Positions 989 through 47,633 of a stretch of DNA of 64,000 nucleotides are shown piece by piece. Where the stretch lies: the IMG/VR virus record IMGVR_UViG_3300037852_000046, positions 1-64,000 of that record, one strand, 5' to 3'. Numbering within the stretch: position 1 is the stretch's first letter; each line of letters begins with the position of its first letter. A program made the translations under genes and the position numbers. The notes below the pieces were generated by a model. The model saw only the letters and a program-made list of their open reading frames with translations, was not told where the DNA came from and did no database searches. This DNA is from a virus.

Positions 989-1200
989 AGGTATCGAAAA
1001 AGGACCGCGCCGGCAACAACGGGCGCAACTGGTCACAGTCGGTAGAACTGCGCGACGGCAAGATGTGGGCGGATTCGAAAACGCCGTTCGGACGCACGTC
1101 TAAGAAGCCGGAAGAGGACGACCGGCCGAAAGCCACGCCGAAAGACCGGAATACGGGAAGCCCCCTGTCACGCAAGCTGGCGGGTAAGGTTATCGGATAA
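985..1200 (+). CDS. Small basic protein, 71 aa
   Basis: Conserved at 39880-40092; stop overlaps the portal start. Confidence 0.8.
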   Translation: MKVSKKDRAGNNGRNWSQSVELRDGKMWADSKTPFGRTSKKPEEDDRPKATPKDRNTGSPLSRKLAGKVIG

Positions 1201-3374
1201 TGGCCCGCAAAAAGAAAGAAGAAAAGCACGAAGACCTGCCCGTCATCGAAACGGTCGATGCACGGGCAATTGACGCTGAACGCACCGGGGAAGAGCTGGA
1301 GAATTTCGCAGAGGATATGTCCTCGGATGCCTATATTGAGGCTTGTAAGTTATACCCTAAAATTCAGCGTTGCTTCGAAAATAAACAACAGCAGTCGGAT
1401 TGGATCGAAGAATATTGGAACGTGTACAATGCGCGCCCTGATGAAAACCAGCAATACACCGGGAACTCCCAGTGCTATATCCCCGCTGTCAGGGATGCCA
1501 TCAACGCTCGTTGTAAGCGGACCCTTGCAACTCTTTTCCCCGCGAATTACAAGCACGTCGACGCTGTCGGCCCTGCCTCAGTCACCCCTTTCCCGACGTT
1601 GGCTTTACTGGAACACTACATCCGTAAGACGAATCTGAAAGATATCGTTCGCGCGGATCTGCTCTCGGGCGATGTCTCCGGCCAGTGGCTGCTTTACATC
1701 GACTGGATGCGCACCACGCGCCGCGTCACCGAACTCGTCAAGAAACCGCCTATCGTCGAGACGATGGCCGGCGACGAAGAGGACATGACGATTGAGGAAG
1801 AGTGGGACATCGAGGAGAAGACGGTCGTCGATGAGATGCCGGATATCACGCCAATGGCGGTTGACGATCTGGCAGTCTACCCGCCCACGGTGAACGATAT
1901 TGAGCGCGCGACAGCTACGGCGATTCGTCTGCGCCTGTCGAAGGAATCGGTGGAGCAGTTTATTGAAGAAGGCGTCTTCGTCGGATGGAACGCGAAAGAG
2001 ATCATGGACAATCTGAACGAGCCAGACGGCGGCCGTCAGAAGCGTGTCCCGAATAAACGCCGCACGGCAGATGCGGGCGTGCGCACCGAGGGCACGTACA
2101 AGTACGCGCTGATTTACGAAGTCCATACGAATCTGGAACTGGAAGAAGGCAAGGGCAAAGAGCCCTGCTTTGTCTACTACGCCGGTCCGGAAGTCATTCT
2201 CGGCATCATCCGTAACCCATTCTGGTCGAAGAAGCGCCCGATCATCACAGCACCCGTCGAACGGATTCAGGGAACGATTTACGGGATCTCGCGCGTCGAA
2301 CCGGTCAAATACCTCCAGTGGAATCTTAACGACTACTGGAATATGGGGCAGGACAGCGCGCAGTATGCGCTTTTGCCTATCGTCATGACCGATCCGTTAG
2401 CCAACCCCAATTACCAGAGCATGGTGATGGGGCTCGCCGCTGTGTGGTTGACGAACCCCCAGACGACCCAGTTCGCGCAGTTTCCGGCCATCTATAAAGA
2501 CGCCGTGGCTTTGTGTCAGGCGATCAAGGCGCAGATCAACGAGAGCATGGAAGTCAACGACGCCATGCTCGGCAAGATGCCGGCGGGCCGGAAGAATCAG
2601 GCACAGGCCGCAGCGCAGGCGCAGGAACAGCAGTCGAACATCATCGACCATGCGAAGCGCTACGAGGGTTGCATCCTGAACCCGTTGCTTGAGCGCATGT
2701 TCGAGCTCGACCGCCAGTTCCGCACGAAGGAACTGACCGTAGTGACGATGGGCGAGGTTGGCGCGCGTGCCAAGCAGGAAGAGATTCCGGTGCAGGCCTT
2801 CTCAGAGCGCTATTTCTTCCGCTGGTGCGGCACGGCCTACCAGACCGGTATGCAGCGCATGCAACAGATGATTGCGTGGATGAACGTGCTTCGCGGCATT
2901 CCCCCGCAGCAGCTGGACGGCAGGCGGCTCAATGTTGGTCCAATCCTGGAGATGGGAACCGAACAGATTTTCGGGCCTGAAGTCGGCCCGCGCATCCTGA
3001 TCGACGAGCGCAACCTGTTTCATGTCGAGCCATCAGACGAGAACCTGATGATGCACAACGGCTTGCCGGCGGAAGTGCATCCGGCGGACGACGATCAGCG
3101 GCACATCGCGGAGCATATGCGCGGTGCGACGCTGACCGGCGATCCGGTCGGCCTGTTCCGCGCGCACATCCAGCAGCATCAGCAGGCCATGAATCAGAAG
3201 ATGCAAAAGGCGCTTGGTCCTCCGCAAGGGCAGCAAGGCGTACCGGGCGGCGCAGGGCCAGGCGTGGCAGGTACTCCGCGCCCCGGCGCGCAACCGGGCC
3301 AGCCTCGCCCGCAAGGGCCCGCCGGAATGATTCATCCGGACACGGTTCAGGATGCACAAATGGGGCCTCGCTAA
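1200..3374 (+). CDS. Portal protein (podovirus type)
   Basis: 724 aa after TerL; Q/P/G-rich C-terminal tail typical of P22/N4-like portals. Confidence 0.85.
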   Translation: MARKKKEEKHEDLPVIETVDARAIDAERTGEELENFAEDMSSDAYIEACKLYPKIQRCFENKQQQSDWIEEYWNVYNARPDENQQYTGNSQCYIPAVRDAINARCKRTLATLFPANYKHVDAVGPASVTPFPTLALLEHYIRKTNLKDIVRADLLSGDVSGQWLLYIDWMRTTRRVTELVKKPPIVETMAGDEEDMTIEEEWDIEEKTVVDEMPDITPMAVDDLAVYPPTVNDIERATATAIRLRLSKESVEQFIEEGVFVGWNAKEIMDNLNEPDGGRQKRVPNKRRTADAGVRTEGTYKYALIYEVHTNLELEEGKGKEPCFVYYAGPEVILGIIRNPFWSKKRPIITAPVERIQGTIYGISRVEPVKYLQWNLNDYWNMGQDSAQYALLPIVMTDPLANPNYQSMVMGLAAVWLTNPQTTQFAQFPAIYKDAVALCQAIKAQINESMEVNDAMLGKMPAGRKNQAQAAAQAQEQQSNIIDHAKRYEGCILNPLLERMFELDRQFRTKELTVVTMGEVGARAKQEEIPVQAFSERYFFRWCGTAYQTGMQRMQQMIAWMNVLRGIPPQQLDGRRLNVGPILEMGTEQIFGPEVGPRILIDERNLFHVEPSDENLMMHNGLPAEVHPADDDQRHIAEHMRGATLTGDPVGLFRAHIQQHQQAMNQKMQKALGPPQGQQGVPGGAGPGVAGTPRPGAQPGQPRPQGPAGMIHPDTVQDAQMGPR

Positions 3375-3703
3375 TGATTGCGCGATCGACGCTATGGGGC
3401 ACTATCCAGTTCGGTGATGAGTTTTACAGGCTCACCGAACTGGAGCAGTGCGCCATCGTCGCGCACGAACAGGGCCATATCCATCACCGGCACACGTGGA
3501 AGCGCCTCGCGCGGCTCGTGACTTTCCGATGGAAGGGTTTCTTCGAGTTCTGCGAAGCGCAGGAACTGGAAGCGGATCGGTACGCCGCGGAACGCGGACA
3601 CGCGGCCGGCCTGATCTCTTTCCTGTTTCGCAGTAACCTGCATGTAAAATCCGCTGGATATCCGACGCATAAACAGCGCATAGAGGCTATCCATGTCCGA
3701 TGA
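3374..3703 (+). CDS. Minimal M48/M56-like zinc metallopeptidase
   Basis: AHEQGH (HExxH) plus downstream QELEADRYA (ExxAD); conserved in copy B. Confidence 0.75.
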   Translation: MIARSTLWGTIQFGDEFYRLTELEQCAIVAHEQGHIHHRHTWKRLARLVTFRWKGFFEFCEAQELEADRYAAERGHAAGLISFLFRSNLHVKSAGYPTHKQRIEAIHVR

Positions 3704-5552
3704 ATTCCGCATCATCCCCTACGTTGTGCGCTCGGCAGGCACCGATGTGCCTCCGGAAGAAGTGCAGGCCGCGATCAACTCGCTCGCGCAGCAGACCACG
3801 GTTGACCTGAACATTCTCGCCAGCCAGGCGCAAAGCCCGACTGGGCCGGCAGGCGGCGATCTCGGCGGCACCTATCCGAACCCAACTGTGGTAGGTCTGC
3901 ACGTAACGACCGGTACGGAAAGCGGTGTCACGGTTACTGGAAATACAATCAATAGTTCACCGATCGGCCAGACTACGCCGGCCGCCGGGGCTTTCACGAC
4001 GTTGACCGCGACCACGCCAATTGGCGCGGCAAGCGGCGGCACGGGCCAGAATACGTTAAGCGCGCACAATGTCCTGCTAGGTGAAGGTACAGGCGCGGTA
4101 GGCTTCGCGGCTCCGGGCGTCACTGCTCAACCCCTTGTTTCGAACGGTTCAGGCGTTGATCCTTCTTTTCAAACCCTGGGTGTAGCCGGAGGGGGGACCG
4201 GTCAGGCGTCGTTACTTTCGCATGGCGTTTTGATAGGCGAAGGAACAGGAGCCATTCATTCAACTGCCGGAACGACCGGGCAGATGCTGCTTGGCGTGAC
4301 CGGAGCGGATCCGGCTTTCGGAAACAATCCGACGATTACCGGCGGCACAATCGACAATGCGCCTATCGGAGGCACAACACCGGCTTCTGCTAAAGTTACA
4401 AGTCTGATCATCCCCAGCACAGGCACGGGCGTAAGCCAGACCTTCATAGGCTCCGGCGGCGCGGCGCTGATGTGGGAAAATCAGACAGCAGTAGCGGCGA
4501 ACGCCACCACTCCCGAAATCGGTGCGCAGTTCACCATAAATTCCAACGTTGGAACGGCCAACAAGACAACGGCGTACAAGATAGGTTTGACCTCTTCCGC
4601 CATCGGAGGAGCGAATTCTGCCAACGTCTACGGGCTCAACACTATTACGCAGGGTTTCGGCGGAACGTATCTGGTAACGGGTATCGAAAGCGATGTCAAC
4701 AATGTCGGCGCGGACTCCATAACCCTCGGGGGTTCGGCGGCGGTGTACGGACTGGTTGCGGTCGCCGCCGGAAGTTTCAAGTCAACCGCCGGCCTGTGGT
4801 TGACGAACGGGGGCTCTTCCGGCTCATGGACGTACGGATGCGCTGTATCGCAGGCGAACGTCGCAGCGTACTACGAAGCCAGCACGGCAACCGCCGGCCT
4901 GAACATCGCAGGCACGCATACCGCCGGGATAGACATGACCGCCGGCACGATGACGCATCTTATGACGTTGCCGAATAACGTCGATATCGCGCAAAAGGAT
5001 AGCGGCGGAACGCTCAGAACCCTGATCTATACTGACAACACGAACAACGTCCACTTAGGCGATCCCGCCCTGAGTTCCGTAACTTCAGAAACAAATTTCA
5101 TATCTGTTGGTTCGGTAACGCCTTCGCAGACCGGCGGCATCGTTGGCACCACTACAAACAACAATGCGAACACGGGCAGCGTGGGCGAGTATGTAACCAA
5201 CACGACGACCGGAACATCCCTCGCTACAGGTACTACCGCAAATGCAACCAGTGTTTCACTGACTGCCGGCGACTGGGACGTTACAGGTGTCGTTCGTTTT
5301 AACCCGGCGGGGACTACCACAGTAAGCAATGAATACGCAGGAATCAGTACAACATCAGCTACGCTCGGCATATTGGGCACCTTTGTACAGGATTCCGGCC
5401 CGCTCAATACCGGGTCGCAGATGTACACCACATGCCCCGTCGTGAGAGTCAGCATCGCGGCGACTACGACTGTGTACGCTGTGGCGCAGGCCACGTTCGG
5501 TACGAGTACGATGTCTTGTGATGGTTTTATCCGGGCGCGTCGTGTCCGTTGA
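3693..5552 (+). CDS. Gly/Thr-rich virion fibre protein (variable)
   Basis: GGDLGGTYPNP motif and repeated GGTGQxxLxxHxVLxGEGTGA units; mosaic relative to 43109-44893. Confidence 0.7.
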   Translation: MSDEFRIIPYVVRSAGTDVPPEEVQAAINSLAQQTTVDLNILASQAQSPTGPAGGDLGGTYPNPTVVGLHVTTGTESGVTVTGNTINSSPIGQTTPAAGAFTTLTATTPIGAASGGTGQNTLSAHNVLLGEGTGAVGFAAPGVTAQPLVSNGSGVDPSFQTLGVAGGGTGQASLLSHGVLIGEGTGAIHSTAGTTGQMLLGVTGADPAFGNNPTITGGTIDNAPIGGTTPASAKVTSLIIPSTGTGVSQTFIGSGGAALMWENQTAVAANATTPEIGAQFTINSNVGTANKTTAYKIGLTSSAIGGANSANVYGLNTITQGFGGTYLVTGIESDVNNVGADSITLGGSAAVYGLVAVAAGSFKSTAGLWLTNGGSSGSWTYGCAVSQANVAAYYEASTATAGLNIAGTHTAGIDMTAGTMTHLMTLPNNVDIAQKDSGGTLRTLIYTDNTNNVHLGDPALSSVTSETNFISVGSVTPSQTGGIVGTTTNNNANTGSVGEYVTNTTTGTSLATGTTANATSVSLTAGDWDVTGVVRFNPAGTTTVSNEYAGISTTSATLGILGTFVQDSGPLNTGSQMYTTCPVVRVSIAATTTVYAVAQATFGTSTMSCDGFIRARRVR

Positions 5553-5604: not shown

Positions 5605-6129
5605 GTGCGAAAACTCAGCAAATTGACCGCGATGATTCGCGCGTTGTTTCCCGGCGTTCAGGGGCAAACTCCCGTCATTTCTCCGATGCTCGGCGCACTG
5701 GCGGATCAAACCGGCATTATCAATTCGATTCTGTCCATCAACCCGTGGCAAGCTGCTATCTACAACGCAGCCTCGAACACGACGGGCTTCACGGCTACCC
5801 AGTCGCAGATCATGGGTGCGGAAACAACCGTACTGAACCTGACGGGCACGCTCGGCGCGGGCGCTGCACTTACGCTCCCTACGGCGGCCGTGATGCAGGC
5901 GACGATGACCCCGCAGCAGGCAGTAGTCGGGTCAACTACTACGCTTCGCGTAATCAATAGCTCGGGCGGTGCTTTCTCCTGGACAGTTACTACGGCCACT
6001 GGATGGACGCTTAACGGAACCATGACGGTAGCGCAAAATACCTGGCGCGATTTCATCGTGACGATCACGGCTGTCGGGGCTACGCCGACGATGACGCTTC
6101 AGGCGATCGGCACTGGCACGCAATCGTAA
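5605..6129 (+). CDS. Putative head decoration/minor capsid protein with LFPG leader
   Basis: CAGGAG RBS, GTG start; Thr-rich beta-type protein upstream of scaffold and MCP. Confidence 0.65.
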   Translation: MRKLSKLTAMIRALFPGVQGQTPVISPMLGALADQTGIINSILSINPWQAAIYNAASNTTGFTATQSQIMGAETTVLNLTGTLGAGAALTLPTAAVMQATMTPQQAVVGSTTTLRVINSSGGAFSWTVTTATGWTLNGTMTVAQNTWRDFIVTITAVGATPTMTLQAIGTGTQS

Positions 6130-6138
6130 GGAATGACA

Positions 6139-6864
6139 ATGAACAAGCTGCTTAAAAAGCTGCTCGGCCTTCTTTTCCCGGGGATTGACGGCGATGATAC
6201 TGATGTTGATCCTCCTGAACTTCCTGAGTCACCTGATCCCGATGGTGATGATCCTGATCTTGATCTTGACCTTGATCTGCCTGACGATACTCCTGCACGC
6301 GCCGCCCCGCGCCGTGACGATTCTGGTGAGCGCCTGGCTCGGCTGGAAGCTGAAGTCTCGGCAGCGAAGCGTTATGCGGATGAAGTCAAATCTCGCCAGC
6401 CCGCTCCGGTAGACAGCGAGTTCCAGCGGGAAGAGGAAAAGCTTCGCAATCCGGAAACGACGGAACTGGAGCGCTGGCAGATCCAGTCAAATCGCACTCT
6501 ACGGGAAGCGAAAGCCGAAGCGCGCCAGGCGAGGCTTGAAGCGGCCGACATGATCGACCGCACGCGGTTCGAGTCGAAGAATTCGACCGACCCGCGCCGC
6601 GCGAAGTATGCGGAGCGCGTGGAAGAGGCGATCCAGCAGGAGCGTGCGCAGGGGCGCAACGCGTCGCGCGAGGCTGTCTACTTCTACATGCTTGGCAAGG
6701 ATATCGCAGAGGGCAAGCTCAAAGCGAAGGCGAAACCGGCATCGAAAACGCCGGACGTGCCGCGCGGCAGGTCTCCGGGGGTTCGGAGCGACGTTCAGGG
6801 CCGGGGCAGGCCCACGACTGATAAAGACAAGCTTCGTGCTCGTCTCGAAAATCAGAATATTTAA
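6139..6864 (+). CDS. Putative scaffolding protein with LFPG leader
   Basis: Acidic disordered N-region, coiled coil and basic C-terminus; directly upstream of MCP. Confidence 0.75.
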   Translation: MNKLLKKLLGLLFPGIDGDDTDVDPPELPESPDPDGDDPDLDLDLDLPDDTPARAAPRRDDSGERLARLEAEVSAAKRYADEVKSRQPAPVDSEFQREEEKLRNPETTELERWQIQSNRTLREAKAEARQARLEAADMIDRTRFESKNSTDPRRAKYAERVEEAIQQERAQGRNASREAVYFYMLGKDIAEGKLKAKAKPASKTPDVPRGRSPGVRSDVQGRGRPTTDKDKLRARLENQNI

Positions 6865-6879
6865 CCACGAGAGGAAACC

Positions 6880-8301
6880 ATGTCCTACCTCAAGAAACTG
6901 GGCCTCATGTGGGCCTCGCTGTTCCCCGGCGTGACAAACCAGTCAACCAGTTTTACGGCTGACGTTGAAGCATACATTCAGGAAGAAGTCGAGCCACTGG
7001 CCCGCCGGCAACTGGTCGCATACCAGTTCGGCAAGCCGCTCAAGCTCGATACGAATCGCGGCACGACCTACACGGCTTCGCGCTACCAGCGTCTTCCGCT
7101 GCCGTTCGCGCCGTTGCAGGAAGGCGTCGCGCCCCCCGGCGAGGCGATGGCGCTGCAACAGGTCTCGGCGACCGCGCAGCAATGGGGCGATCGCGTCATC
7201 ATCACCGACGTGGCGAACCTGACCATCAAGCACCCGCTCTTCCAGCAGGCCTGCGAACTGGTCGCGCTTCAGCTTCCGGAAACGCTCGAACGCAACACGA
7301 TGAATACGCTGATGGCGGCCACGCAGGTGAACTTCGCCAACGGCAAAACGTCGCGCGCCAACCTGCTCGCCACCGATGTCATGACGCCGCACGAGAACAA
7401 CCGCATTGTCGGAACGTTCCTGACCTATGGCGTTCCGCGCTTCATGGGCGACGAGCGGGAAGACATGATGATCGAGGCGGGCGCGTATCGCGATCCATCG
7501 AAGTCGCCGGCCGTGATGCAGCACTACATCGGCCTGATTCACCCGCTGTCGGCGCAGGATATGCGCGAGAACACGACCGTGGCCAATGCCTGGTCGTACA
7601 GCGACATCAACCGCCTGTACAACAACGAACTCGGCCCGTTTGGCGGCACGCGCTTTGTCGAATCGAACATGATTCCGTTCTTCACGGGCGTGGCTGCGAT
7701 CCAGGGCACGGCTTCGGCTTCGGGCGGCACGCTCGCGACGAACGCCGGTTACCAGATCATCGTAACCGCTTCGCCGGCGCAGACTTCGGTTGAACAGCAG
7801 ATCTACCAGGTGTCGAATGCGATCTCGGTTACTGGCCCGACTGGTTCTATCAGCGTTGTCCTGCCCCAACTGGCCGGCTACGTGTTCAACATCTACATCG
7901 GCACGTCGGCCACGCCGTCCAACCTTGCAACCGCAATCGGTCTCGGCGTTCCGGCTACCGGCCCCCTGGCCGGCCAGGCAACGCAGCTTCTGCCGAACCA
8001 AACTGTCACCCTGACAGGCATCGGCGTCGCGCAAACGCCGCCGGCCGCTCCGGCCACGGGCGTTTCAGTATTCCCGACGATATACATCGGCAATCACTCG
8101 TACGGTCAGGTGCTGCTCGAAAACCCCGAGTTTCACTATCTGACGGGCCCTGACAAGTCAGATCCGCTGAATCAGACGCGCGTGGTAAGCTGGAAAGTGT
8201 TCTACGGCTCGATCATCCTCAACCAGGCGTTTTTGGCTCGCGTTGAAGCCGGTTCTGCCTTCAGCACGACGTTCTCCGCCGGCACTGTGACAACCCCGTA
8301 A
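6880..8301 (+). CDS. Major capsid protein, N4-gp56-like, with an internal beta-rich insertion
   Basis: LQEGVAPPG, QWGDRVIITD, KSDPLNQTRVVSWK motifs; nearly identical in copy B. Confidence 0.9.
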   Translation: MSYLKKLGLMWASLFPGVTNQSTSFTADVEAYIQEEVEPLARRQLVAYQFGKPLKLDTNRGTTYTASRYQRLPLPFAPLQEGVAPPGEAMALQQVSATAQQWGDRVIITDVANLTIKHPLFQQACELVALQLPETLERNTMNTLMAATQVNFANGKTSRANLLATDVMTPHENNRIVGTFLTYGVPRFMGDEREDMMIEAGAYRDPSKSPAVMQHYIGLIHPLSAQDMRENTTVANAWSYSDINRLYNNELGPFGGTRFVESNMIPFFTGVAAIQGTASASGGTLATNAGYQIIVTASPAQTSVEQQIYQVSNAISVTGPTGSISVVLPQLAGYVFNIYIGTSATPSNLATAIGLGVPATGPLAGQATQLLPNQTVTLTGIGVAQTPPAAPATGVSVFPTIYIGNHSYGQVLLENPEFHYLTGPDKSDPLNQTRVVSWKVFYGSIILNQAFLARVEAGSAFSTTFSAGTVTTP

Positions 8302-40092: not shown

Positions 40093-40628
40093 AGACCTGT
40101 TCTAAATGCGGACAGGAAAAGCCATTGACAGAGTTTTCATTTCTGAAAGGCGTTCCACGTTCACATTGCAAAGTATGCAAGGCGACCACGGCAGCAGAAT
40201 GGCGTAAGGCAAACCCCGGCCGGATGGAGGCAAAATCCGCCGAATGGTACGCGCAAAACGCAAAACGCAAACAGGAAACGAACGCGACATGGCGCGCGGC
40301 GAATCCTGAGAAAGCGAAAGCGGCGCAAGTGAAGGCTACGGCGCGTTGGCGTGAAGCGAATCCGCATCGAGTGACCGCCAAGCAGGCTAGGCGGACGGCG
40401 GCGCAACTTCAGGCGACGCCCACGTGGGCGGATGAAAAGGCTATCAGGCAGTATTATCTGATAGCAAATTACCTGTCGGTGGAATTGAATTCTCCGTTTC
40501 AGGTAGATCACGTAGTGCCGCTTCAGTCAAAAGAGGTATGCGGCTTGCATGCCCAAACTAATCTGTCGATCCTGCCAGCGGCATGGAACGCAAAGAAAGG
40601 CAATCGGACATGGCCCGGAAAGCCGTAA
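40089..40628 (+). CDS. HNH homing endonuclease (copy B only)
   Basis: CSKC..CKVC zinc finger; ATPTWAD...QVDHVVPL..VCGLH. Confidence 0.88.
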   Translation: MKTCSKCGQEKPLTEFSFLKGVPRSHCKVCKATTAAEWRKANPGRMEAKSAEWYAQNAKRKQETNATWRAANPEKAKAAQVKATARWREANPHRVTAKQARRTAAQLQATPTWADEKAIRQYYLIANYLSVELNSPFQVDHVVPLQSKEVCGLHAQTNLSILPAAWNAKKGNRTWPGKP

Positions 40629-42790
40629 AAAAGAAAGAAGAATTTGAGGACCAGCCGGTTATTGAGACCGTGGGTTCGCGCGTCATCGACGCGGAACGCC
40701 TTGATGAAAAGCTGGAAAATTTCGCGGAAGACCTCGGCTCAGACGCGATGATCGAAGCGGCCAAGTTGTACCCGAAAATTCAGAAGAGCTACGAGAACAA
40801 GCAACAGCAGTCCGACCGCGTGGAAGAATGCTGGAACATCTTTAATGCAATTCCCGATGAGAATCAGCAGTATACCGGAAATTCGCAATGTTATGTTCCA
40901 ATAGTCAGAGATTGCATCAATGCACGTTGTAAACGCACTCTCGCTACTCTCTTTCCCGCCAATTACAAGCACGTAGACGCCATTGGACCTTCCAGCGTTA
41001 CGCCGTTTCCTACACTCGCCCTGCTCGAACACTACATCCGAAAGACGAATCTGAAGGATATCGTTCGCGCGGATCTGCTTTCGGGCGATGTAACCGGCCA
41101 GTGGCTGCTTTACGTGGACTGGATGCGTACGACACGGCGAATCACTGAGCTTGTAAAGAAGCCACCGATTGTCGAGACCCTGTCGGGCGAGGAAGAGGAC
41201 GTTACGATCGAAGAAGAATGGGATGTTGAAGAAAAGACGATCGTTGACGAAATGCCGGACATTACCCCGATGGCCGTTGACGATCTCGCGGTCTACCCCC
41301 CTACAGTGAACGACATCGAGAAGGCTACGGCCACGGCGATTCGTCTGCGCCTGTCGAAGGAATCCGTCGAGCAGTTCATTGAAGAAGGTGTCTTCGTCGG
41401 CTGGAACGCGAAAGAGATCATGGACAATCTGAACGAGCCGGACGGCGGCCGCCAGAAACGCGTCCCGAACAAGCGCCGCACGGCAGATGCCGGCGTGCGC
41501 ACCGAGGGCACGTACAAGTACGCGCTGATTTACGAAGTCCATACGAATCTGGAACTGGAAGAAGGCAAGGGCAAAGAGCCTTGTTTTGTCTATTACGCCG
41601 GCCCGGAAGTCATTCTCGGTATCATCCGAAACCCGTTCTGGTCGAAGAAGCGCCCCATCATTACGGCACCCGTTGAGCGGATTCAGGGAACGATTTACGG
41701 GATCTCGCGTGTCGAACCCGTGAAGTACCTCCAGTGGAACGTGAACGATTTCTTCAACATGGGGATGGATAGCGCTCAATACGCGCTTTTGCCTATCGTC
41801 ATGACCGATCCGTTAGCCAACCCCAATTACCAGAGTATGGTGATGGGGCTAGCCGCTGTGTGGCTCACGAACCCGCAAACAACACAATTCGCGCAGTTCC
41901 CGGCGATATACAAAGATTCCATCGCGCTTTGTAATGCAATCAAGGCGCAGATCAAAGAATCGATGGATGTCAATGACGCGATGCTTGGGACCCTCCCCCC
42001 AGGCAGGAAGAATCAGGCGCAGGCCGCAGCGCAGGCGCAGGAGCAACAGTCGAATATCATCGACCACGCGAAGCGTTACGAAGGTTGCATTTTGAACCCG
42101 TTGCTGGAACGCATGTTTGAGCTCGACCGTCAGTTTCGTACGAAGGAACTTACGGTCGTCACGATGGGCGAAGTCGGAGCTCGAGCAAAACAGGAAGAAA
42201 TCCCGGTTCAGGCATTCAGCGAGCGCTACTTCTTCCGCTGGTGTGGCACAGCCTATCAGACCGGAATGCAGCGCATGCAGCAGATGATTGCGTGGATGAA
42301 CGTGCTGCGCGGCATCCCCCCGCAGCAACTGGACGGCCGGCGGCTCAACGTCGGCCCGATTCTGGAGATGGGCACTGAGCAGATTTTCGGGCCGGAAGTC
42401 GGCCCGCGTATCCTGATCGATGAGCGCAATCTGTTCCACGTTGAGCCGTCAGACGAGAACCTGATGATGCACAACGGTTTGCCAGCGGAAGTGCATCCGG
42501 CGGATGACGATCAGCGGCACATCGCGGAGCATATGCGCGGTGCGACGCTGACCGGCGATCCGGTCGGCCTGTTCCGCGCGCACATCCAGCAACATCAGCA
42601 GGCCATGAACCAGAAGATGCAAAAGGCACTTGGGCCGCCGCAAGGGCAACAGGGCATACCCGGCGGCGCGGGCCCAGGCGTGGCCGGCACCCCGCGACCG
42701 GGCGCACAACCCGGCCAGCCTCGCCCGCAAGGCCCGCCCGGTATGGTGAATCCGGATCAGGTTCAGGATGCACAGATGGGGCCGCGCTAA
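40610..42790 (+). CDS. Portal protein
   Basis: Homolog of 1200-3374; start overlaps the HNH 3' end. Confidence 0.85.
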   Translation: MARKAVKKKEEFEDQPVIETVGSRVIDAERLDEKLENFAEDLGSDAMIEAAKLYPKIQKSYENKQQQSDRVEECWNIFNAIPDENQQYTGNSQCYVPIVRDCINARCKRTLATLFPANYKHVDAIGPSSVTPFPTLALLEHYIRKTNLKDIVRADLLSGDVTGQWLLYVDWMRTTRRITELVKKPPIVETLSGEEEDVTIEEEWDVEEKTIVDEMPDITPMAVDDLAVYPPTVNDIEKATATAIRLRLSKESVEQFIEEGVFVGWNAKEIMDNLNEPDGGRQKRVPNKRRTADAGVRTEGTYKYALIYEVHTNLELEEGKGKEPCFVYYAGPEVILGIIRNPFWSKKRPIITAPVERIQGTIYGISRVEPVKYLQWNVNDFFNMGMDSAQYALLPIVMTDPLANPNYQSMVMGLAAVWLTNPQTTQFAQFPAIYKDSIALCNAIKAQIKESMDVNDAMLGTLPPGRKNQAQAAAQAQEQQSNIIDHAKRYEGCILNPLLERMFELDRQFRTKELTVVTMGEVGARAKQEEIPVQAFSERYFFRWCGTAYQTGMQRMQQMIAWMNVLRGIPPQQLDGRRLNVGPILEMGTEQIFGPEVGPRILIDERNLFHVEPSDENLMMHNGLPAEVHPADDDQRHIAEHMRGATLTGDPVGLFRAHIQQHQQAMNQKMQKALGPPQGQQGIPGGAGPGVAGTPRPGAQPGQPRPQGPPGMVNPDQVQDAQMGPR

Positions 42791-43119
42791 TGATTGCACG
42801 TTCGACGCTATGGGGCACTATCCAGTTCGGTGATGAGTTTTACAGGCTCACCGAACTGGAGCAGTGCGCCATCGTTGCACATGAGAAGGGCCACATCCAC
42901 CACCGGCACGCATGGAAACGCCTCGCGCGTCTCGTGACTTTCAGATGGAAAGGCTTTTTCGAGATGTGCGAAGCGCAGGAACTGGAAGCGGACCGCTACG
43001 CCGTGGCGCGCGGCCATGTGCCCGGACTGATCTCTTTCCTGCTTCGCAGTAACCTGCATGTAAAATCGGCCGGATATCCGACGCACAAACAGCGCATAGA
43101 GGCTATCCATGTCCGATGA
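42790..43119 (+). CDS. Minimal M48-like zinc peptidase
   Basis: AHEKGH, ELEADRYA. Confidence 0.75.
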   Translation: MIARSTLWGTIQFGDEFYRLTELEQCAIVAHEKGHIHHRHAWKRLARLVTFRWKGFFEMCEAQELEADRYAVARGHVPGLISFLLRSNLHVKSAGYPTHKQRIEAIHVR

Positions 43120-44893
43120 ATTTGTCTTCAATATCCCGGTAGTCAAAGGCGAGGGTGTTGGCGTACCGGTGAGCGAGGTTCAACGCGCGATCAATTCGAT
43201 CTGCCAGCAGACAGCGGCGGATCTGAACCTGATTGCATCAGGTGGCTTCCCTCTCAACAACGTGAACATCACCGGCGGCACGATCACGGGCGTTACTGGC
43301 GCGACGCAAGGCCCGACGGACAACTCTCTACTGCTCGCGACGGATGCCTTCGTCAATCAGCAGGTCATCCGGAATACAGCGACCGTTCCCCTTTCGATCA
43401 CGGGCGGTATCTACAATCAGGAATCGCTCGGTTCAGGGCTTCAGGTAGTCGTCTTTGCCTCTGGCGGAGTGATCACAGGTATTCTGTCTATCGCCGTACC
43501 CGGCAGCGGTTATGCCGTGGGCGATATTCTGGTGCTTCCGGGCGGTAATTCGGATGCGGTGATCCGCGTCACCGTAGTTGGGGGCGGCGGTTCGGTAACC
43601 ACGACGCAGATCCTGTACGGCGGCACGGGCTATTCGACCGGCGCGCAGATCGCTGGAGCCGTTGTGCCGCCCGGAGAGCGTCAGGTTATCCTGACAGGAA
43701 CGCTTACCAGCAACGCGACGATCATTATCGCGGCAGGGAATTTCAATAACGCTTCCCGCCGACCGGCATTCGTCAACAATACGACGGGAGCCTTCACCGT
43801 CACAGTGGCGTTGAGTAATGGCGCGGGCGGTACAACAGGCTCCAGCGTCGTTCTGCCGCAAGGCACTGCCAATTCCTCCGCTGTCGTTCTGGAAACGGAC
43901 GGTGAGACGGGCGTATGGATTGCGAATACGCCTCTCGGGATTGGCGCTTTGCCCTCGACCTCGCCGACGATTACCGGCGCAACGATTACCAGCAGCACGA
44001 TCAACAGTACATCGGTCGGCGCGACGACGCCTTCAACCGGCGCTTTCACGACGTTGACCGCGTCCACGCCGGTAGGTGTCGCGAGCGGCGGCACGGGCCT
44101 TGGGGCTTTGACGGCGTTTAACGTCCTGGTCGGCAACGGTACGGGAAACGTCGCGCTGATTGCGCCTGGCGCAGCCGGAATTCCACTTACCTCGCGCGGC
44201 GCGGGCACGAATCCGGCATTCCAGGGGATCACAGTCCCCGGCGGCGGAACCGGACAGACGACGCTCACAGCGCATAGTGTCCTGCTCGGCGAAGGCACAG
44301 GTGCAGTAGCGTTCGCGACGGGCACGACAGGGCAGATGTTGATTGGCGTCACGGGGGCCGATCCGGCGTTCGGAAATAACCCGACGATCACGGGCGGAAC
44401 AATCGACAACGCGGTAATTGGCGGCACGACTCCGGCGGCGGTTACCGCTACTACGCTCGTAGCAACCGGAATGTCGCGCGTTATCGCTAGTACGACGAAC
44501 GCATTAAGTTTGACAAGTGGGGCAACGACTGTCGTTACGACCTTTACGGCAACGGTGAACGTCGGAGCAAACTTTGTGGCGTCCACGGGTGTTTATACCG
44601 CGCCGGCCACGGGGCAGTATGCGGTAAGCGCGGCGTTTCGAACGACTTCTGCCACCGTGGCGGCCAATACCCAATTCATCGTCATTTTCAACGTGAACGG
44701 CGCGGCGGTTCAGCAAGCGGGCGTAACGTATCAGTCTAACGTGGCCACTACCTGCCAGGCGACTTGCGCCACAGTTCTCAACGTGACTTCAGGCCAGACG
44801 ATAACGGTATCGATTTTCCAGAGCACAGCGGCGACGTTGACGCTAGACGGGGCCGCCGCCGCCAACTGGCTTACGATATCCAGGCTTTATTGA
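43109..44893 (+). CDS. Virion fibre protein with C1q-like C-terminal domain
   Basis: NFVASTGVYTAPATGQY motif; central repeat module shared with copy A. Confidence 0.7.
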   Translation: MSDEFVFNIPVVKGEGVGVPVSEVQRAINSICQQTAADLNLIASGGFPLNNVNITGGTITGVTGATQGPTDNSLLLATDAFVNQQVIRNTATVPLSITGGIYNQESLGSGLQVVVFASGGVITGILSIAVPGSGYAVGDILVLPGGNSDAVIRVTVVGGGGSVTTTQILYGGTGYSTGAQIAGAVVPPGERQVILTGTLTSNATIIIAAGNFNNASRRPAFVNNTTGAFTVTVALSNGAGGTTGSSVVLPQGTANSSAVVLETDGETGVWIANTPLGIGALPSTSPTITGATITSSTINSTSVGATTPSTGAFTTLTASTPVGVASGGTGLGALTAFNVLVGNGTGNVALIAPGAAGIPLTSRGAGTNPAFQGITVPGGGTGQTTLTAHSVLLGEGTGAVAFATGTTGQMLIGVTGADPAFGNNPTITGGTIDNAVIGGTTPAAVTATTLVATGMSRVIASTTNALSLTSGATTVVTTFTATVNVGANFVASTGVYTAPATGQYAVSAAFRTTSATVAANTQFIVIFNVNGAAVQQAGVTYQSNVATTCQATCATVLNVTSGQTITVSIFQSTAATLTLDGAAAANWLTISRLY

Positions 44894-44945: not shown

Positions 44946-45452
44946 GTGCGAAAACTCAAACTGGCCGAAGTGATCGGCGCTCTTTTCCCCGCGATCCAGG
45001 GCCAGACTCCTGTTATCGCTGACAACGGCTCCATGCCTGATCAGGTCGGCCTGATCAATGCGCTGATTTCGGTCAACCCGTGGCCGGCGACGGCATACAA
45101 CCTCGACACGCACACGGGTGCTTTTACCGCCACGCAGCAGCAGGTCATGGCGGCGGAGAATACCTTTCTCGCCCTGTCCCTCACCGGCGCGGCGGCGGTT
45201 ACTCTGCCGACTGTAGCTACGCTCCTTTCGACGATGACTCCGCAGCAAGCGGTAGTCGGGTCAACGACCAACCTTCGCATCATTAACGCCACCGGCTTTA
45301 CTGCTACCGTCACGACCAACACTGGCTGGACGTTAAATGGCACGATGACGGTCGCCACTACCGTGTGGCGCGACTTCGTGATTCAGATCACGGCCACAGG
45401 CGCGACTCCTACGGCGACCATCCAGAATGTCGGCGCTGGCGACGCAACGTAA
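44946..45452 (+). CDS. Putative head decoration protein (LFPA leader)
   Basis: Homolog of 5605-6129. Confidence 0.65.
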   Translation: MRKLKLAEVIGALFPAIQGQTPVIADNGSMPDQVGLINALISVNPWPATAYNLDTHTGAFTATQQQVMAAENTFLALSLTGAAAVTLPTVATLLSTMTPQQAVVGSTTNLRIINATGFTATVTTNTGWTLNGTMTVATTVWRDFVIQITATGATPTATIQNVGAGDAT

Positions 45453-45461
45453 GGAACAACA

Positions 45462-46196
45462 ATGAACAAGCTGCTTAAAAAGCTGCTCAAAAAGCTGCTC
45501 GGCCTTCTATTCCCGGGGATTGACGGCGATGACGATAATGTTGATCCTCCTGACGATCCTGACACACCTGATCCCGATAGTGGCGATCCTGATCTTGATC
45601 TCGACCTTGATCTGCCTGACGATCCTCCTCCACGCACCGCCGCGCGTCACGACGATTCTGGTGAGCGCCTGGCTAGGCTGGAAGCTGAAGTCGAAAGGCG
45701 CGGCCGCCTGGCGGCAGAAGCCGCAGCACGCCAGCCCACGGTAGACAGTGAGTTCCAGCGGGAAGAAGAGCGTCTCCGCAATCCGGAAACGACGGAGCTT
45801 GAGCGCTGGCAGATCCAGTCAAACCGCACACTGCGCGAAGCGAAGGCCGAAGCGCGTCAGGCAAGACTCGAAGCGGCCGACATGATCGACCGTACGCGGT
45901 TCGAGTCGAAGAACACGACCGATCCGCGACGCGCGAAGTACGCGGACCGCGTGGAAGAAGCGATACAGCAGGAGCGGAATCAAGGGCGCAACGCGTCGCG
46001 CGAGGCGGTCTACTTCTACCTGCTCGGCAAGGATATCGCGGAAGGCAAGCTTAAAGCGAAGGCAAAACCGGCATCGAAAGCGCCGGACGTGCCGCGCGGC
46101 AGGTCTCCGGGGGTTCGGAGCGACGTACCAGGCCGGGGTCGGCCCACGACTGATCAGGACAAGCGTAGAGCGCGTCTTGAGAATCAGAATATTTAA
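45462..46196 (+). CDS. Putative scaffolding protein
   Basis: Homolog of 6139-6864 with a 4-residue duplication in the leader. Confidence 0.75.
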   Translation: MNKLLKKLLKKLLGLLFPGIDGDDDNVDPPDDPDTPDPDSGDPDLDLDLDLPDDPPPRTAARHDDSGERLARLEAEVERRGRLAAEAAARQPTVDSEFQREEERLRNPETTELERWQIQSNRTLREAKAEARQARLEAADMIDRTRFESKNTTDPRRAKYADRVEEAIQQERNQGRNASREAVYFYLLGKDIAEGKLKAKAKPASKAPDVPRGRSPGVRSDVPGRGRPTTDQDKRRARLENQNI

Positions 46197-46211: not shown

Positions 46212-47633
46212 ATGTCCTACCTCAAGAAACTGGGCCTCATGTGGGCCTCGCTGTTCCCCGGCGTGACAAACCAGTCCACCAGTTTTACGGCGGACGTTGA
46301 AGCGTACATTCAGGAAGAAGTTGAACCGCTCGCGCGCCGCCAACTGGTCGCGTACCAGTTCGGAAAGCCGCTCAAGCTCGATACGAATCGAGGCACGACC
46401 TACACGGCATCGCGCTACCAGCGTTTGCCGTTGCCTTTCGCGCCGTTGCAGGAAGGCGTAGCGCCTCCCGGCGAAGCGATGGCGCTGCAACAGGTCTCCG
46501 CTACCGCGCAGCAATGGGGTGACCGCGTTATCATCACCGACGTGGCGAACCTGACCATCAAGCATCCGCTCTTCCAGCAGGCCTGCGAACTGGTCGCGCT
46601 GCAACTGCCGGAAACGCTGGAGCGCAACACGATGAATACGTTGATGGCGGCCACGCAGGTGAACTACGCCAACGGCAAAACGTCGCGCGCCAACCTGATT
46701 GCAACCGATGTCATGACGCCGCATGAGAACAATCGTATCGTAGGCACGTTCCTGACCTACGGCGTTCCTCGCTTCATGGGCGACGAGCGGGAAGACATGA
46801 TGATCGAAGCGGGCGCGTATCGCGATCCGTCGAAGTCGCCGGCCGTGATGCAGCACTACATCGGCCTGATTCATCCGCTGTCGGCGCAGGACATGCGCGA
46901 GAACACGACCGTGGCTAACGCGTGGTCGTACAGCGACATCAACCGCCTGTACAACAACGAGCTCGGCCCCTTCGGCGGTACGCGCTTCGTCGAGTCGAAC
47001 ATGATTCCCTTCTTCGTCGGCAATGCCGCGATTCAGGGAACGGCCTCGACTTCGGGTGGCACGCTCGCGACGAACGCCGGTTACCAGATCATCGTGACCG
47101 CTTCGCCGGCCCAAACTTCGGTTGAGCAGCAGATTTACCAGGTGTCGAACGCGATCAGCGTCACCGGCCCCACGGGCTCGATCAGCGTCGTACTGCCGCA
47201 GCTTGCCGGCTACGTGTTCAATATCTACATCGGCACGTCGGCCACGCCGTCGAACCTCGCCACGGCCATCGGCCTCGGCGTCCCGGTCACCGGCCCCCTC
47301 GCTGGTCAGGCAACGCAGCTTCTGCCGAACCAGACCGTGACGCTCACGGGCATTGGTGTAGCGCAAACGCCGCCGGCCGCTCCGGCAACGGGCGTTTCAG
47401 TGTTCCCGACTATCTATATCGGCAACCACTCGTACGGTCAGGTGCTGCTCGAAAATCCTGAGTTCCATTACCTGACCGGGCCGGACAAGTCGGACCCGCT
47501 GAACCAGACTCGCGTCGTATCATGGAAAGTATTTTATGGAAGTATTATCCTCAACCAGGCGTTTCTTGCCCGCGTTGAAGCCGGTTCCGCGTTCAGCACG
47601 ACGTTCTCCGCTGGTACTGTGACAACCCCGTAA
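46212..47633 (+). CDS. Major capsid protein, N4-gp56-like
   Basis: Near-identical to 6880-8301. Confidence 0.9.
   Translation: MSYLKKLGLMWASLFPGVTNQSTSFTADVEAYIQEEVEPLARRQLVAYQFGKPLKLDTNRGTTYTASRYQRLPLPFAPLQEGVAPPGEAMALQQVSATAQQWGDRVIITDVANLTIKHPLFQQACELVALQLPETLERNTMNTLMAATQVNYANGKTSRANLIATDVMTPHENNRIVGTFLTYGVPRFMGDEREDMMIEAGAYRDPSKSPAVMQHYIGLIHPLSAQDMRENTTVANAWSYSDINRLYNNELGPFGGTRFVESNMIPFFVGNAAIQGTASTSGGTLATNAGYQIIVTASPAQTSVEQQIYQVSNAISVTGPTGSISVVLPQLAGYVFNIYIGTSATPSNLATAIGLGVPVTGPLAGQATQLLPNQTVTLTGIGVAQTPPAAPATGVSVFPTIYIGNHSYGQVLLENPEFHYLTGPDKSDPLNQTRVVSWKVFYGSIILNQAFLARVEAGSAFSTTFSAGTVTTP

Follow-up and report, generated by a model that had tools for sequence, protein, structure and literature searches.

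A leader common to the N-termini of phage head proteins and a candidate phage-encoded M48-type peptidase for its possible removal

The DNA studied here is a 64,000-nucleotide stretch of viral sequence (positions 1–64,000 of the 79,073 bp IMG/VR record IMGVR_UViG_3300037852_000046; this whole stretch is called the window below), and our subject is a short leader that is common to the N-termini of three consecutive head-module proteins encoded in it by an uncultured phage of Burkholderia type. These are a protein called p174 in copy A of the module and p168 in copy B (the second copy lies at an offset of 39,383), a scaffold-like protein, and the major capsid protein (MCP). In both copies each of the three begins with a basic hydrophobic segment of 11–15 amino acids (aa) that runs into the motif LFP[GA][VI]. 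On balance we favour the reading, drawn from comparative sequence evidence, that the leaders are propeptides which a phage-encoded M48-type leader peptidase removes by cutting between the Gly of the motif and the Val or Ile that follows it (written G↓V/I below). The six leaders of the window are the following.

5605..5655, plus strand: p174 leader, copy A, residues M1–G17, predicted cut between G17 (5653–5655) and V18 (5656–5658); DNA motif at 5644–5657
6139..6183, plus strand: scaffold leader, copy A, residues M1–G15, predicted cut G15↓I16; DNA motif at 6172–6185
6880..6930, plus strand: MCP leader, copy A, residues M1–G17, predicted cut G17↓V18; DNA motif at 6919–6932
44946..44993, plus strand: p168 leader, copy B, residues M1–A16, motif LFPA↓I; DNA motif at 44982–44995
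45462..45518, plus strand: scaffold leader, copy B, residues M1–G19; DNA motif at 45507–45520
46212..46262, plus strand: MCP leader, copy B, peptide identical to that of copy A; DNA motif at 46251–46264

The six N-termini quoted in the original prediction, which was made from the sequence of the window, are thus all present where it had placed them. A degenerate DNA pattern for [LF]-F-P-[GA]-[VI] matches the 64-kb window six times, each time at one of these N-termini, while dinucleotide shuffles give a mean of 0.5 matches and a maximum of 2 (a 12-fold enrichment). At the protein level, a regular-expression scan of every open reading frame (ORF) of at least 80 aa, taken from each of its start codons over the entire 79-kb record, found only these three genes per copy and two extra matches that are spurious antisense frames. 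Good Shine-Dalgarno sites stand ahead of all three starts. The codons that spell the motif vary among the three genes (TTG/CTT/CTG, TTT/TTC, CCC/CCG, GGC/GGG and GTT/ATT/GTG), so the constraint appears to be on the peptide and not on the DNA. Beyond residues 4–27 we detected no meaningful similarity among p174, the scaffold-like protein and the MCP, and the description of the three as otherwise unrelated is upheld. In copy B a tandem duplication of 12 nt at 45489–45500 (AAAAAGCTGCTC, encoding KKLL) makes the scaffold leader 4 aa longer than in copy A.

The same prediction called the segments basic and amphipathic, and only the first of these terms applies to all of them: each leader has two to four Lys or Arg residues and almost no Asp or Glu. 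The helical moment of the scaffold leaders, 0.61, is reached by 2–5% of shuffles, and the helical hydrophobic moments of the p174 and MCP leaders show no gain over shuffles; amphipathicity as a general property of the leaders was rejected because only the scaffold leaders beat the shuffles. The p174 and scaffold leaders do not resemble Sec-type signal peptides, which have an unbroken hydrophobic core of at least 10 residues and an AxA-type site, since Lys and Arg residues interrupt them (RKLSKLTAMIRAL, NKLLKKLLGLL) and the residue at −3 is Phe; the region corresponding to the signal-peptide n-region is basic in the leaders, and the MCP leaders of a sister subclade (the L-type, below) are more signal-like. 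Membrane tethering, which had been raised as a role for the segment, finds no support in the p174 and scaffold leaders, whose charge and short length would not allow them to span a membrane.

In about 150 related loci the p174, scaffold and MCP homologues all retain the leader, while the sequences that flank it diverge. In 80 viral loci (L001–L080) the MCPs are 78–99% identical, whereas identity among the homologues of scaffold and p174 is only 42–75%, and the leaders end in [LMIF]-F-P-[GAS]-[VI]; the survival of the motif where its flanks diverge, first noted in the two copies of the window, thus extends well beyond them. Homologues of p174 down to 44% identity retain the leader, and 30 scaffolds of 42–86% identity show little or no variation at residues L4, L5, L8, L9, L12, F13, P14 and G15. 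For 115 MCP homologues the mean pairwise identity is 23% in the leader body, 45% in the five-residue motif and 89% in the next 40 residues of the mature protein; their leaders are 9–27 residues long and contain 10.8% Lys plus Arg and 0.5% Asp plus Glu. A loose body, a fixed end and a highly conserved mature N-terminus is, as a sequence pattern, that of removable signals. One lineage has a 96-nt in-frame insert (32 aa) directly before LFPGV in the MCP leader, found in several samples (L034:3500–3598, and also L035, L036, L037, L042, L123, L131 and L141, contigs from related samples); the composition of the 32-aa insert is not leader-like, and its 30-mer occurs nowhere else among the loci compared.

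The candidate for the enzyme that would remove the leader is encoded directly behind the portal gene, whose stop codon its start codon overlaps (ATGA).

3374..3703, plus strand: mini M48-like zinc metallopeptidase, copy A, 109 aa, candidate leader peptidase
42790..43119, plus strand: mini M48-like peptidase, copy B, 93% identical to that of copy A

The match of the 109-aa protein to Pfam profile PF01435 is marginal (21.6 bits against a cut-off of 20.3, over 27 residues). In an alignment with 41 homologues of 30–93% identity, H31, E32 and H35 of the HExxH motif are invariant, and so is Q63-E64-x-x-A67-D68, the ExxAD motif with the Glu that serves as third zinc ligand. An AlphaFold2 (AF2) model of the protein has a predicted local distance difference test score (pLDDT) of 94 and is one compact domain of three short strands and five helices. 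Aligned with VIA-align, the model superimposes on ZMPSTE24 with a Z score of 10.5 and a root-mean-square deviation of 2.1 Å over 103 of its 109 residues, and the other Z scores are 8.3 for Ste24p, 8.1 for BepA, 5.7 for BlaR1 and 4.4 for abylysin. Its nearest Atlas cluster is named "Peptidase M48 domain-containing protein" and is 57% viral. The membrane-embedded or multi-domain architecture of Ste24, HtpX, Oma1 and BepA is not found in the 109-aa protein, and sequence searches gave no match to it among the chains of the PDB or among 50,697 phage records. Judged by these residues and by the predicted fold, it looks like an active M48-type peptidase.

The peptidase gene and the leader occur together. 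The interval from portal to MCP was covered for 74 distinct MCPs. It contains an M48-like gene in 64 of them, every one of which bears the leader; in 52 of the 64 the M48-like ORF ends no more than 700 nt from the end of the portal gene. None of the ten without an M48-like gene has the shared leader: nine are leaderless on both MCP and scaffold, and the tenth is locus L086. Searches of the 79-kb record with profiles of other protease families, S78 (PF04586), ClpP/S14 (PF00574) and S49 (PF01343), gave no match; the S77 profile PF03420 also gave none, and it matched none of its own controls either. Prediction of a complex of the peptidase, zinc and scaffold residues 1–40 gave scores of 0.29 and 0.11 against a mark of 0.32, without controls, and this counts neither for nor against recognition of the leader.

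Examination of homologous head operons, which the original prediction had proposed as a check, shows a motif that is conserved and that, where it changes in single genomes or in the sister subclade, changes jointly on the several proteins. In the sister subclade (L087–L117, MCPs about 72–76% identical) L-[TS]-L-G-[VI] replaces LFPG[VI]; we call the two groups L-type and P-type. Variants confined to a single genome are LFP[RQ]V in L103 and [FL][LF]PL[VA] in L140. Each genome's variant is common to its MCP, its scaffold and two to four further head-module ORFs, and L094 and L102 have six leader-bearing proteins each, whereas the phage of the window has three. The MCP hexamer (six residues) agrees with that of the scaffold of the same genome at 3.96 of 6 positions and with those of other genomes' scaffolds at 2.89 of 6, a difference reached by 0 of 20,000 permutations in a test that ignores kinship among the loci; the same test by group gives p = 0.002 for the P-type and p = 0.036 for the L-type, kinship again being ignored. 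Finer changes also recur in parallel: in L144 both proteins have LLLPGV, in L031 both have AYLFPG, and L099 has Ala at −1. The co-variation would be most simply explained by a single factor that reads the motif. In the L-type subclade, 4–6 consecutive head-module ORFs open with the genome's own leader variant (L094:6923–10001, L102:1337–7005, L088:7006–10001, L103:5425–9974), and the extra ones, besides scaffold and MCP, are about 115, 180–255, 262–286 and 157–167 aa in size.

Comparison with leaderless relatives locates the likely cut. At 58% identity or lower, MCPs of the N4-gp56 family for the most part begin with MA(T)..., and residues 18–20 of the window's MCP align with their residues 2–4; in the nine leaderless loci the scaffold too opens directly at its acidic tract. 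Because the leaderless MCPs and scaffolds start after the motif, a G↓V/I cut would recreate their N-termini. Leaderless sisters (L081:8065–8554, L148, L158, L159 and L162) have portal, scaffold and MCP genes with no peptidase, fibre or p174 gene between them, and the joint absence of these three genes suggests that the peptidase–fibre–p174 block is a single inserted or lost module. Further away in the same capsid family, several N4-gp56-family MCPs (P0253, P0240, P0261, P0266, P0223, P0219, P0255 and P0258) have leaders like those of L27 and Prp substrates (...DLQYFAN, MLKLNLRLFD). These Prp-like leaders, NLxLF[DA] and LQYFA, occur on some Firmicute-type members of the family, and the MCPs that carry them presumably belong to Firmicute phages; since some members have leaders of this kind, N-terminal leaders have had more than one origin in this capsid family. 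We looked for a second, independent co-occurrence of peptidase and leader in other N4-gp56 lineages and rejected the candidates L207, L208 and L210, which are without an M48-like gene.

The nature of p174 bears on where such an enzyme would act. In its AF2 model a leader helix (residues 3–14) is followed by a low-confidence linker and a beta-sandwich (residues 51–172). Its best PDB match is the capsid spike gp52 of phage Pa223 (E 5.6e-4, template-modelling score 0.37), for which the structural reference is 10.1101/2025.06.11.659172, and the next matches are tailspike and fibre domains; there is also a weak match to PHROG_673. From the model, p174 is plausibly a capsid spike or decoration protein. 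Its gene starts with GTG in the window and in 31 of 45 distinct homologues, and this start codon suggests a translation rate deliberately set below that of scaffold and MCP.

In the mechanism we propose, the N-terminal 15–19 residues of p174/p168, the scaffold-like protein and the MCP would be propeptides, each made of a variable, basic, hydrophobic and helix-prone body and a recognition motif consisting of a hydrophobic residue, Phe, Pro, Gly or Ala, and then Val or Ile. The 109-aa M48-type peptidase would recognise this motif and cut after the small residue, ahead of the beta-branched hydrophobic one, leaving mature N-termini equal to those of the leaderless relatives. Before its removal the leader would probably serve assembly, for example through solubility or co-recruitment of subunits, a use for which the scaffold leader of 80alpha and the capsid-targeting sequence of T4 are precedents. 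Gluzincins usually prefer a hydrophobic residue at P1', and Ste24 cuts before an aliphatic residue of the CaaX box, which makes G↓V/I a plausible cut site for such an enzyme. The cleavage near LFPG↓V that had been predicted from the window gains its support from comparison: the N-termini of leaderless relatives, the hypervariable leader body and a peptidase gene restricted to leader-bearing genomes. Extended to the relatives, the proposal is one that we hold to be as good as evenly balanced: phages and prophages of ~40 kb from Burkholderiales and other Proteobacteria of soil and fresh water, which form a large clade without cultured members, would place a uniform leader on MCP, scaffold and spike and on as many as three additional head proteins, a phage-encoded M48-type zinc metallopeptidase of 109–160 aa would remove it, and the specificity of the enzyme would co-evolve with the motif (FPG↓V versus TLG↓V).

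Several points weigh against cleavage by this peptidase. In the MCP tree the leader-bearing members form a monophyletic group, so the co-occurrence of leader and peptidase amounts to about one evolutionary gain, shared with the fibre and p174 genes, and is statistically weak. The permutation tests of co-variation were made without phylogenetic correction, and since the MCP tree separates P-type from L-type in essentially one split, co-variation at the level of clades does not represent many independent events. N-terminal extensions also occur where the enzyme does not: L086 has an unrelated 22-aa MCP extension and no M48-like gene, and the P0141 and P0135 types (L207, L208 and L210) have MCP N-terminal extensions, no M48-like gene and a scaffold without leader. 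If p174 is an external spike, it is hard to place one enzyme so that it has access both to p174 and to the internal proteins. Cultured relatives of the MCP are distant, the best among the 50,697 phage records being only 27% identical. Many podophages need no maturation protease. Assembly of the staphylococcal phage 80alpha needs the scaffold leader and can do without its cleavage (PMC5744158); the uncleaved leader could therefore be the essential form here too.

This last point leads to a rather unlikely alternative, in which the leader is kept as a permanent or transient helix for assembly or targeting, linked to the rest of the protein through an FPG hinge, and the M48-like protein has some other role (Lit-like, anti-defence or lysis). 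Such a helix might gather MCP, scaffold and spike by their N-termini into a bundle, dock to the portal or the scaffold core, or bind the inner membrane peripherally. The predicted helix and flexible linker of the p174 leader and the significant amphipathicity of the scaffold leaders would suit it, as would the assembly of 80alpha, which requires the leader and not its cleavage (PMC5744158); within-genome co-variation would likewise be expected of leaders that bind one another or share a binding partner, and one of the clusters near the peptidase in the Atlas is a viral M48/U49 (Lit-like) one. A leader that ranges from 9 to 27 aa and tolerates a 32-aa insert and a 4-aa duplication is, however, a poor fit to a defined packing interface in an icosahedral shell, and its conservation is confined to the last five residues. 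Leaderless relatives make the same capsid and scaffold, and the peptidase gene, which stands in the head operon and is coupled translationally to the portal gene, is found in every leader-bearing genome; these observations are better accommodated by the peptidase we propose. That the resemblance has no common function, and reflects chance, mis-called starts, an element at the nucleotide level or a relic of intragenomic recombination, is in our estimate highly improbable. Short leaders are easily over-read, p174 starts with GTG, and identical stretches of 6–7 aa in MCP and scaffold of some genomes (AYLFPG in L031) could stem from gene conversion; on the other hand, the motif is enriched 12-fold over shuffles, the three starts have good Shine-Dalgarno sites and the GTG of p174 is conserved in most homologues, the motif codons differ among the genes, and the leader is kept in about 150 loci while its flanks diverge.

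A host protease could instead remove the leaders, and for this we checked the genomes of Burkholderia semiarida and Paraburkholderia tropica, both of which carry related prophages; what is said of hosts below refers to these two. No match to Prp (PF04327) was found in either genome, although the controls from Bacillus, Lactococcus and Thermotoga matched, and ribosomal protein L27 of both hosts starts MAHKKAGGSS, without extension. The DNA motif has 44 matches in the two genomes, most of them internal and chiefly in the major facilitator superfamily (MFS) transporter motif EAGFFPG[VI]; the only N-terminal ones are the prophage's own MCP and scaffold and one twin-arginine (Tat) signal peptide. 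The latter (L196, G001:C25:833887, minus strand; MQSRRTFM...) ends ...CSLFPGVSGA and is the sole N-terminal host case in the two genomes. The search of host proteomes that had been suggested therefore finds no host protein with such a leader apart from that signal peptide. Mimicry of a host substrate of the 80alpha kind was rejected, there being no Prp, no L27 extension and no host substrate, and the original view that the signal is analogous to, and distinct from, the L27/Prp system of Firmicutes agrees with these genomes.

Removal by a host enzyme, whether a protease used as Prp is used by 80alpha or a signal-peptidase-like or housekeeping endopeptidase for small↓hydrophobic sites, seems to us improbable. 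Composition speaks for it to a degree, as the leaders have a signal-peptide-like make-up of basic N-terminus, hydrophobic core and small residue at −1, and the L-type T-L-G↓V fits the −3/−1 rule. There is also the precedent of 80alpha itself (PMC5744158). Yet beyond the lack of Prp, of an L27 extension and of a host substrate to mimic among the 44 matches, the motif drifts across phage subclades and hosts (Burkholderia and Paraburkholderia, and Rhodanobacter-named distant MCPs) and is always accompanied by the phage-encoded peptidase. The substrates of signal peptidase are exported, capsid proteins are not, and Phe at −3 and the charged residues of the p174 and scaffold leaders are unlike Sec signals.

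The record that contains these genes holds two related phage genomes of ~39.4 kb each, head to tail, with 70–91% nucleotide identity and an identical order of head-module genes (portal, 109-aa HExxH protein, fibre-like protein, p174/p168, scaffold-like protein and MCP). Besides the peptidase these are as follows.

1200..3374, plus strand: portal, copy A, 724 aa, with PHROG portal and adaptor matches; its stop overlaps the peptidase start (ATGA)
40583–42790: portal, copy B
3693..5552, plus strand: fibre-like protein, copy A, 619 aa, with a weak PHROG tail-fiber match; N-terminus MSDEF..., without leader
43109–44893: fibre-like protein, copy B
5605..6129, plus strand: p174, copy A, GTG start with AGGAG Shine-Dalgarno site; leader-bearing beta-sandwich protein
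44946–45452: p168, copy B
6139..6864, plus strand: scaffold-like protein, copy A, ATG start, 241 aa; leader, Asp/Pro-rich acidic tract and charged helical C-terminal part
45462–46196: scaffold-like protein, copy B
6880..8301, plus strand: MCP, copy A, ATG start, 473 aa, N4-gp56 family
46212–47633: MCP, copy B

The MCP is of the N4-gp56 family (N4-gp56/HK97-type): it matches the PHROG_1357 major head protein (1.7e-37), and many homologues at 72–88% identity are named "N4-gp56 family major capsid protein". Its score against Pfam Phage_capsid_4 is below the cut-off; a search of the PDB with its sequence gave no match, and one with its profile gave a single marginal match (E 0.03). Its homologues number more than 2,000, and most of them are found on ~40-kb contigs and in genomes of Burkholderia, Paraburkholderia and Rhodanobacter. 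In all loci the gene directly upstream of the MCP gene is that of the scaffold-like protein, which is acidic and coiled-coil-like, and homologous portals lie upstream of the module in every locus that covers the region. In four Burkholderia and Paraburkholderia loci (L143:6756–8630, L153:7175–8356, L155:7263–8357 and L157:7189–8388) the ORF at the fibre-like position opens with an apparent Sec signal peptide (...ALAQ↓SYPSPT), which is odd for a virion fibre. Cassettes are swapped between the two genome copies of the record, which IMG/VR classes as having direct terminal repeats, and the arrangement could stem from tandem polylysogeny or from chimeric assembly of two variants that occur together.

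To our knowledge the maturation proteases of phage heads are serine enzymes (HK97 gp4, T4 gp21 and the ClpP/S49-like ones) or, for 80alpha, the host cysteine protease Prp, and a literature search that combined prohead protease with metalloprotease returned no relevant paper linking the two. If the cleavage proposed for this clade is real, Caudoviricetes would have here their first metalloprotease-based system of capsid maturation, and capsid maturation a new enzyme class; it would also give a function to a very common "hypothetical" gene that accompanies the MCP in the leader clade. Further, it would offer a test case for a protease and several substrates that co-evolve a recognition motif, an annotation rule by which mature N-termini begin after hydrophobic-F/T-P/L-G, and a portable pair of leader and peptidase for the targeting and release of cargo in HK97-fold shells.

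Among known systems, 80alpha offers the closest parallel on the substrate side. Its capsid and scaffold proteins share an N-terminal leader of 13–14 aa that is removed by host Prp (PMC5744158; Wall et al. 2015, as cited there), so that there, as here, unrelated capsid and scaffold proteins share an N-terminal leader that ends in a conserved motif. The sites differ, being hydrophobic-F-P-G↓V/I here and FF↓A there, and no host mimicry is seen here; the candidate protease is a phage-encoded zinc metallopeptidase and not a host cysteine protease, and in relatives of the window phage up to six proteins bear the leader. In T4 a capsid-targeting sequence of ~10 aa at the N-terminus directs proteins into the prohead and is then removed by gp21 (PMC9958956; Mullaney and Black 1996, as cited there). 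The candidate described here resembles gp21 and the gp21-like proteases of jumbo phages in being phage-encoded and in having as its putative substrates short N-terminal peptides on many head proteins. It differs in that gp21, a core component that cuts at LxE-type sites, belongs to the serine proteases with the fold of herpesvirus assemblin, whereas ours is a 109-aa M48-type protein with a predicted small↓V/I site after a hydrophobic leader, and in that here one leader is common to the MCP and the accessory proteins.

With regard to the enzyme, the candidate shares with the M48/M56 gluzincins (Ste24/ZMPSTE24, HtpX, BepA and BlaR1) the HExxH motif, the downstream Glu in ExxAD and, in the model, the fold of the catalytic domain, and with the archaeal minigluzincins (abylysin, PDB 4jiu) a minimal soluble size, 109 aa here. 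Unlike the M48/M56 members it has no membrane spans and no TPR domain, and its gene is located in a phage head operon. With the prohead proteases of the HK97, lambda and P2 types (S78 and S49/ClpP-like), of which no family was detected in the record, it has in common the position of its gene between portal and scaffold/MCP and the proposed role in capsid maturation; it is of another catalytic class and has no scaffold-like delta domain. The trimming of head proteins at a shared site is thus already known from T4, jumbo phages and 80alpha, and what is new here is the leader and its motif, the number of different proteins marked by a single, uniform tag at the N-terminus and the probable class of the protease.

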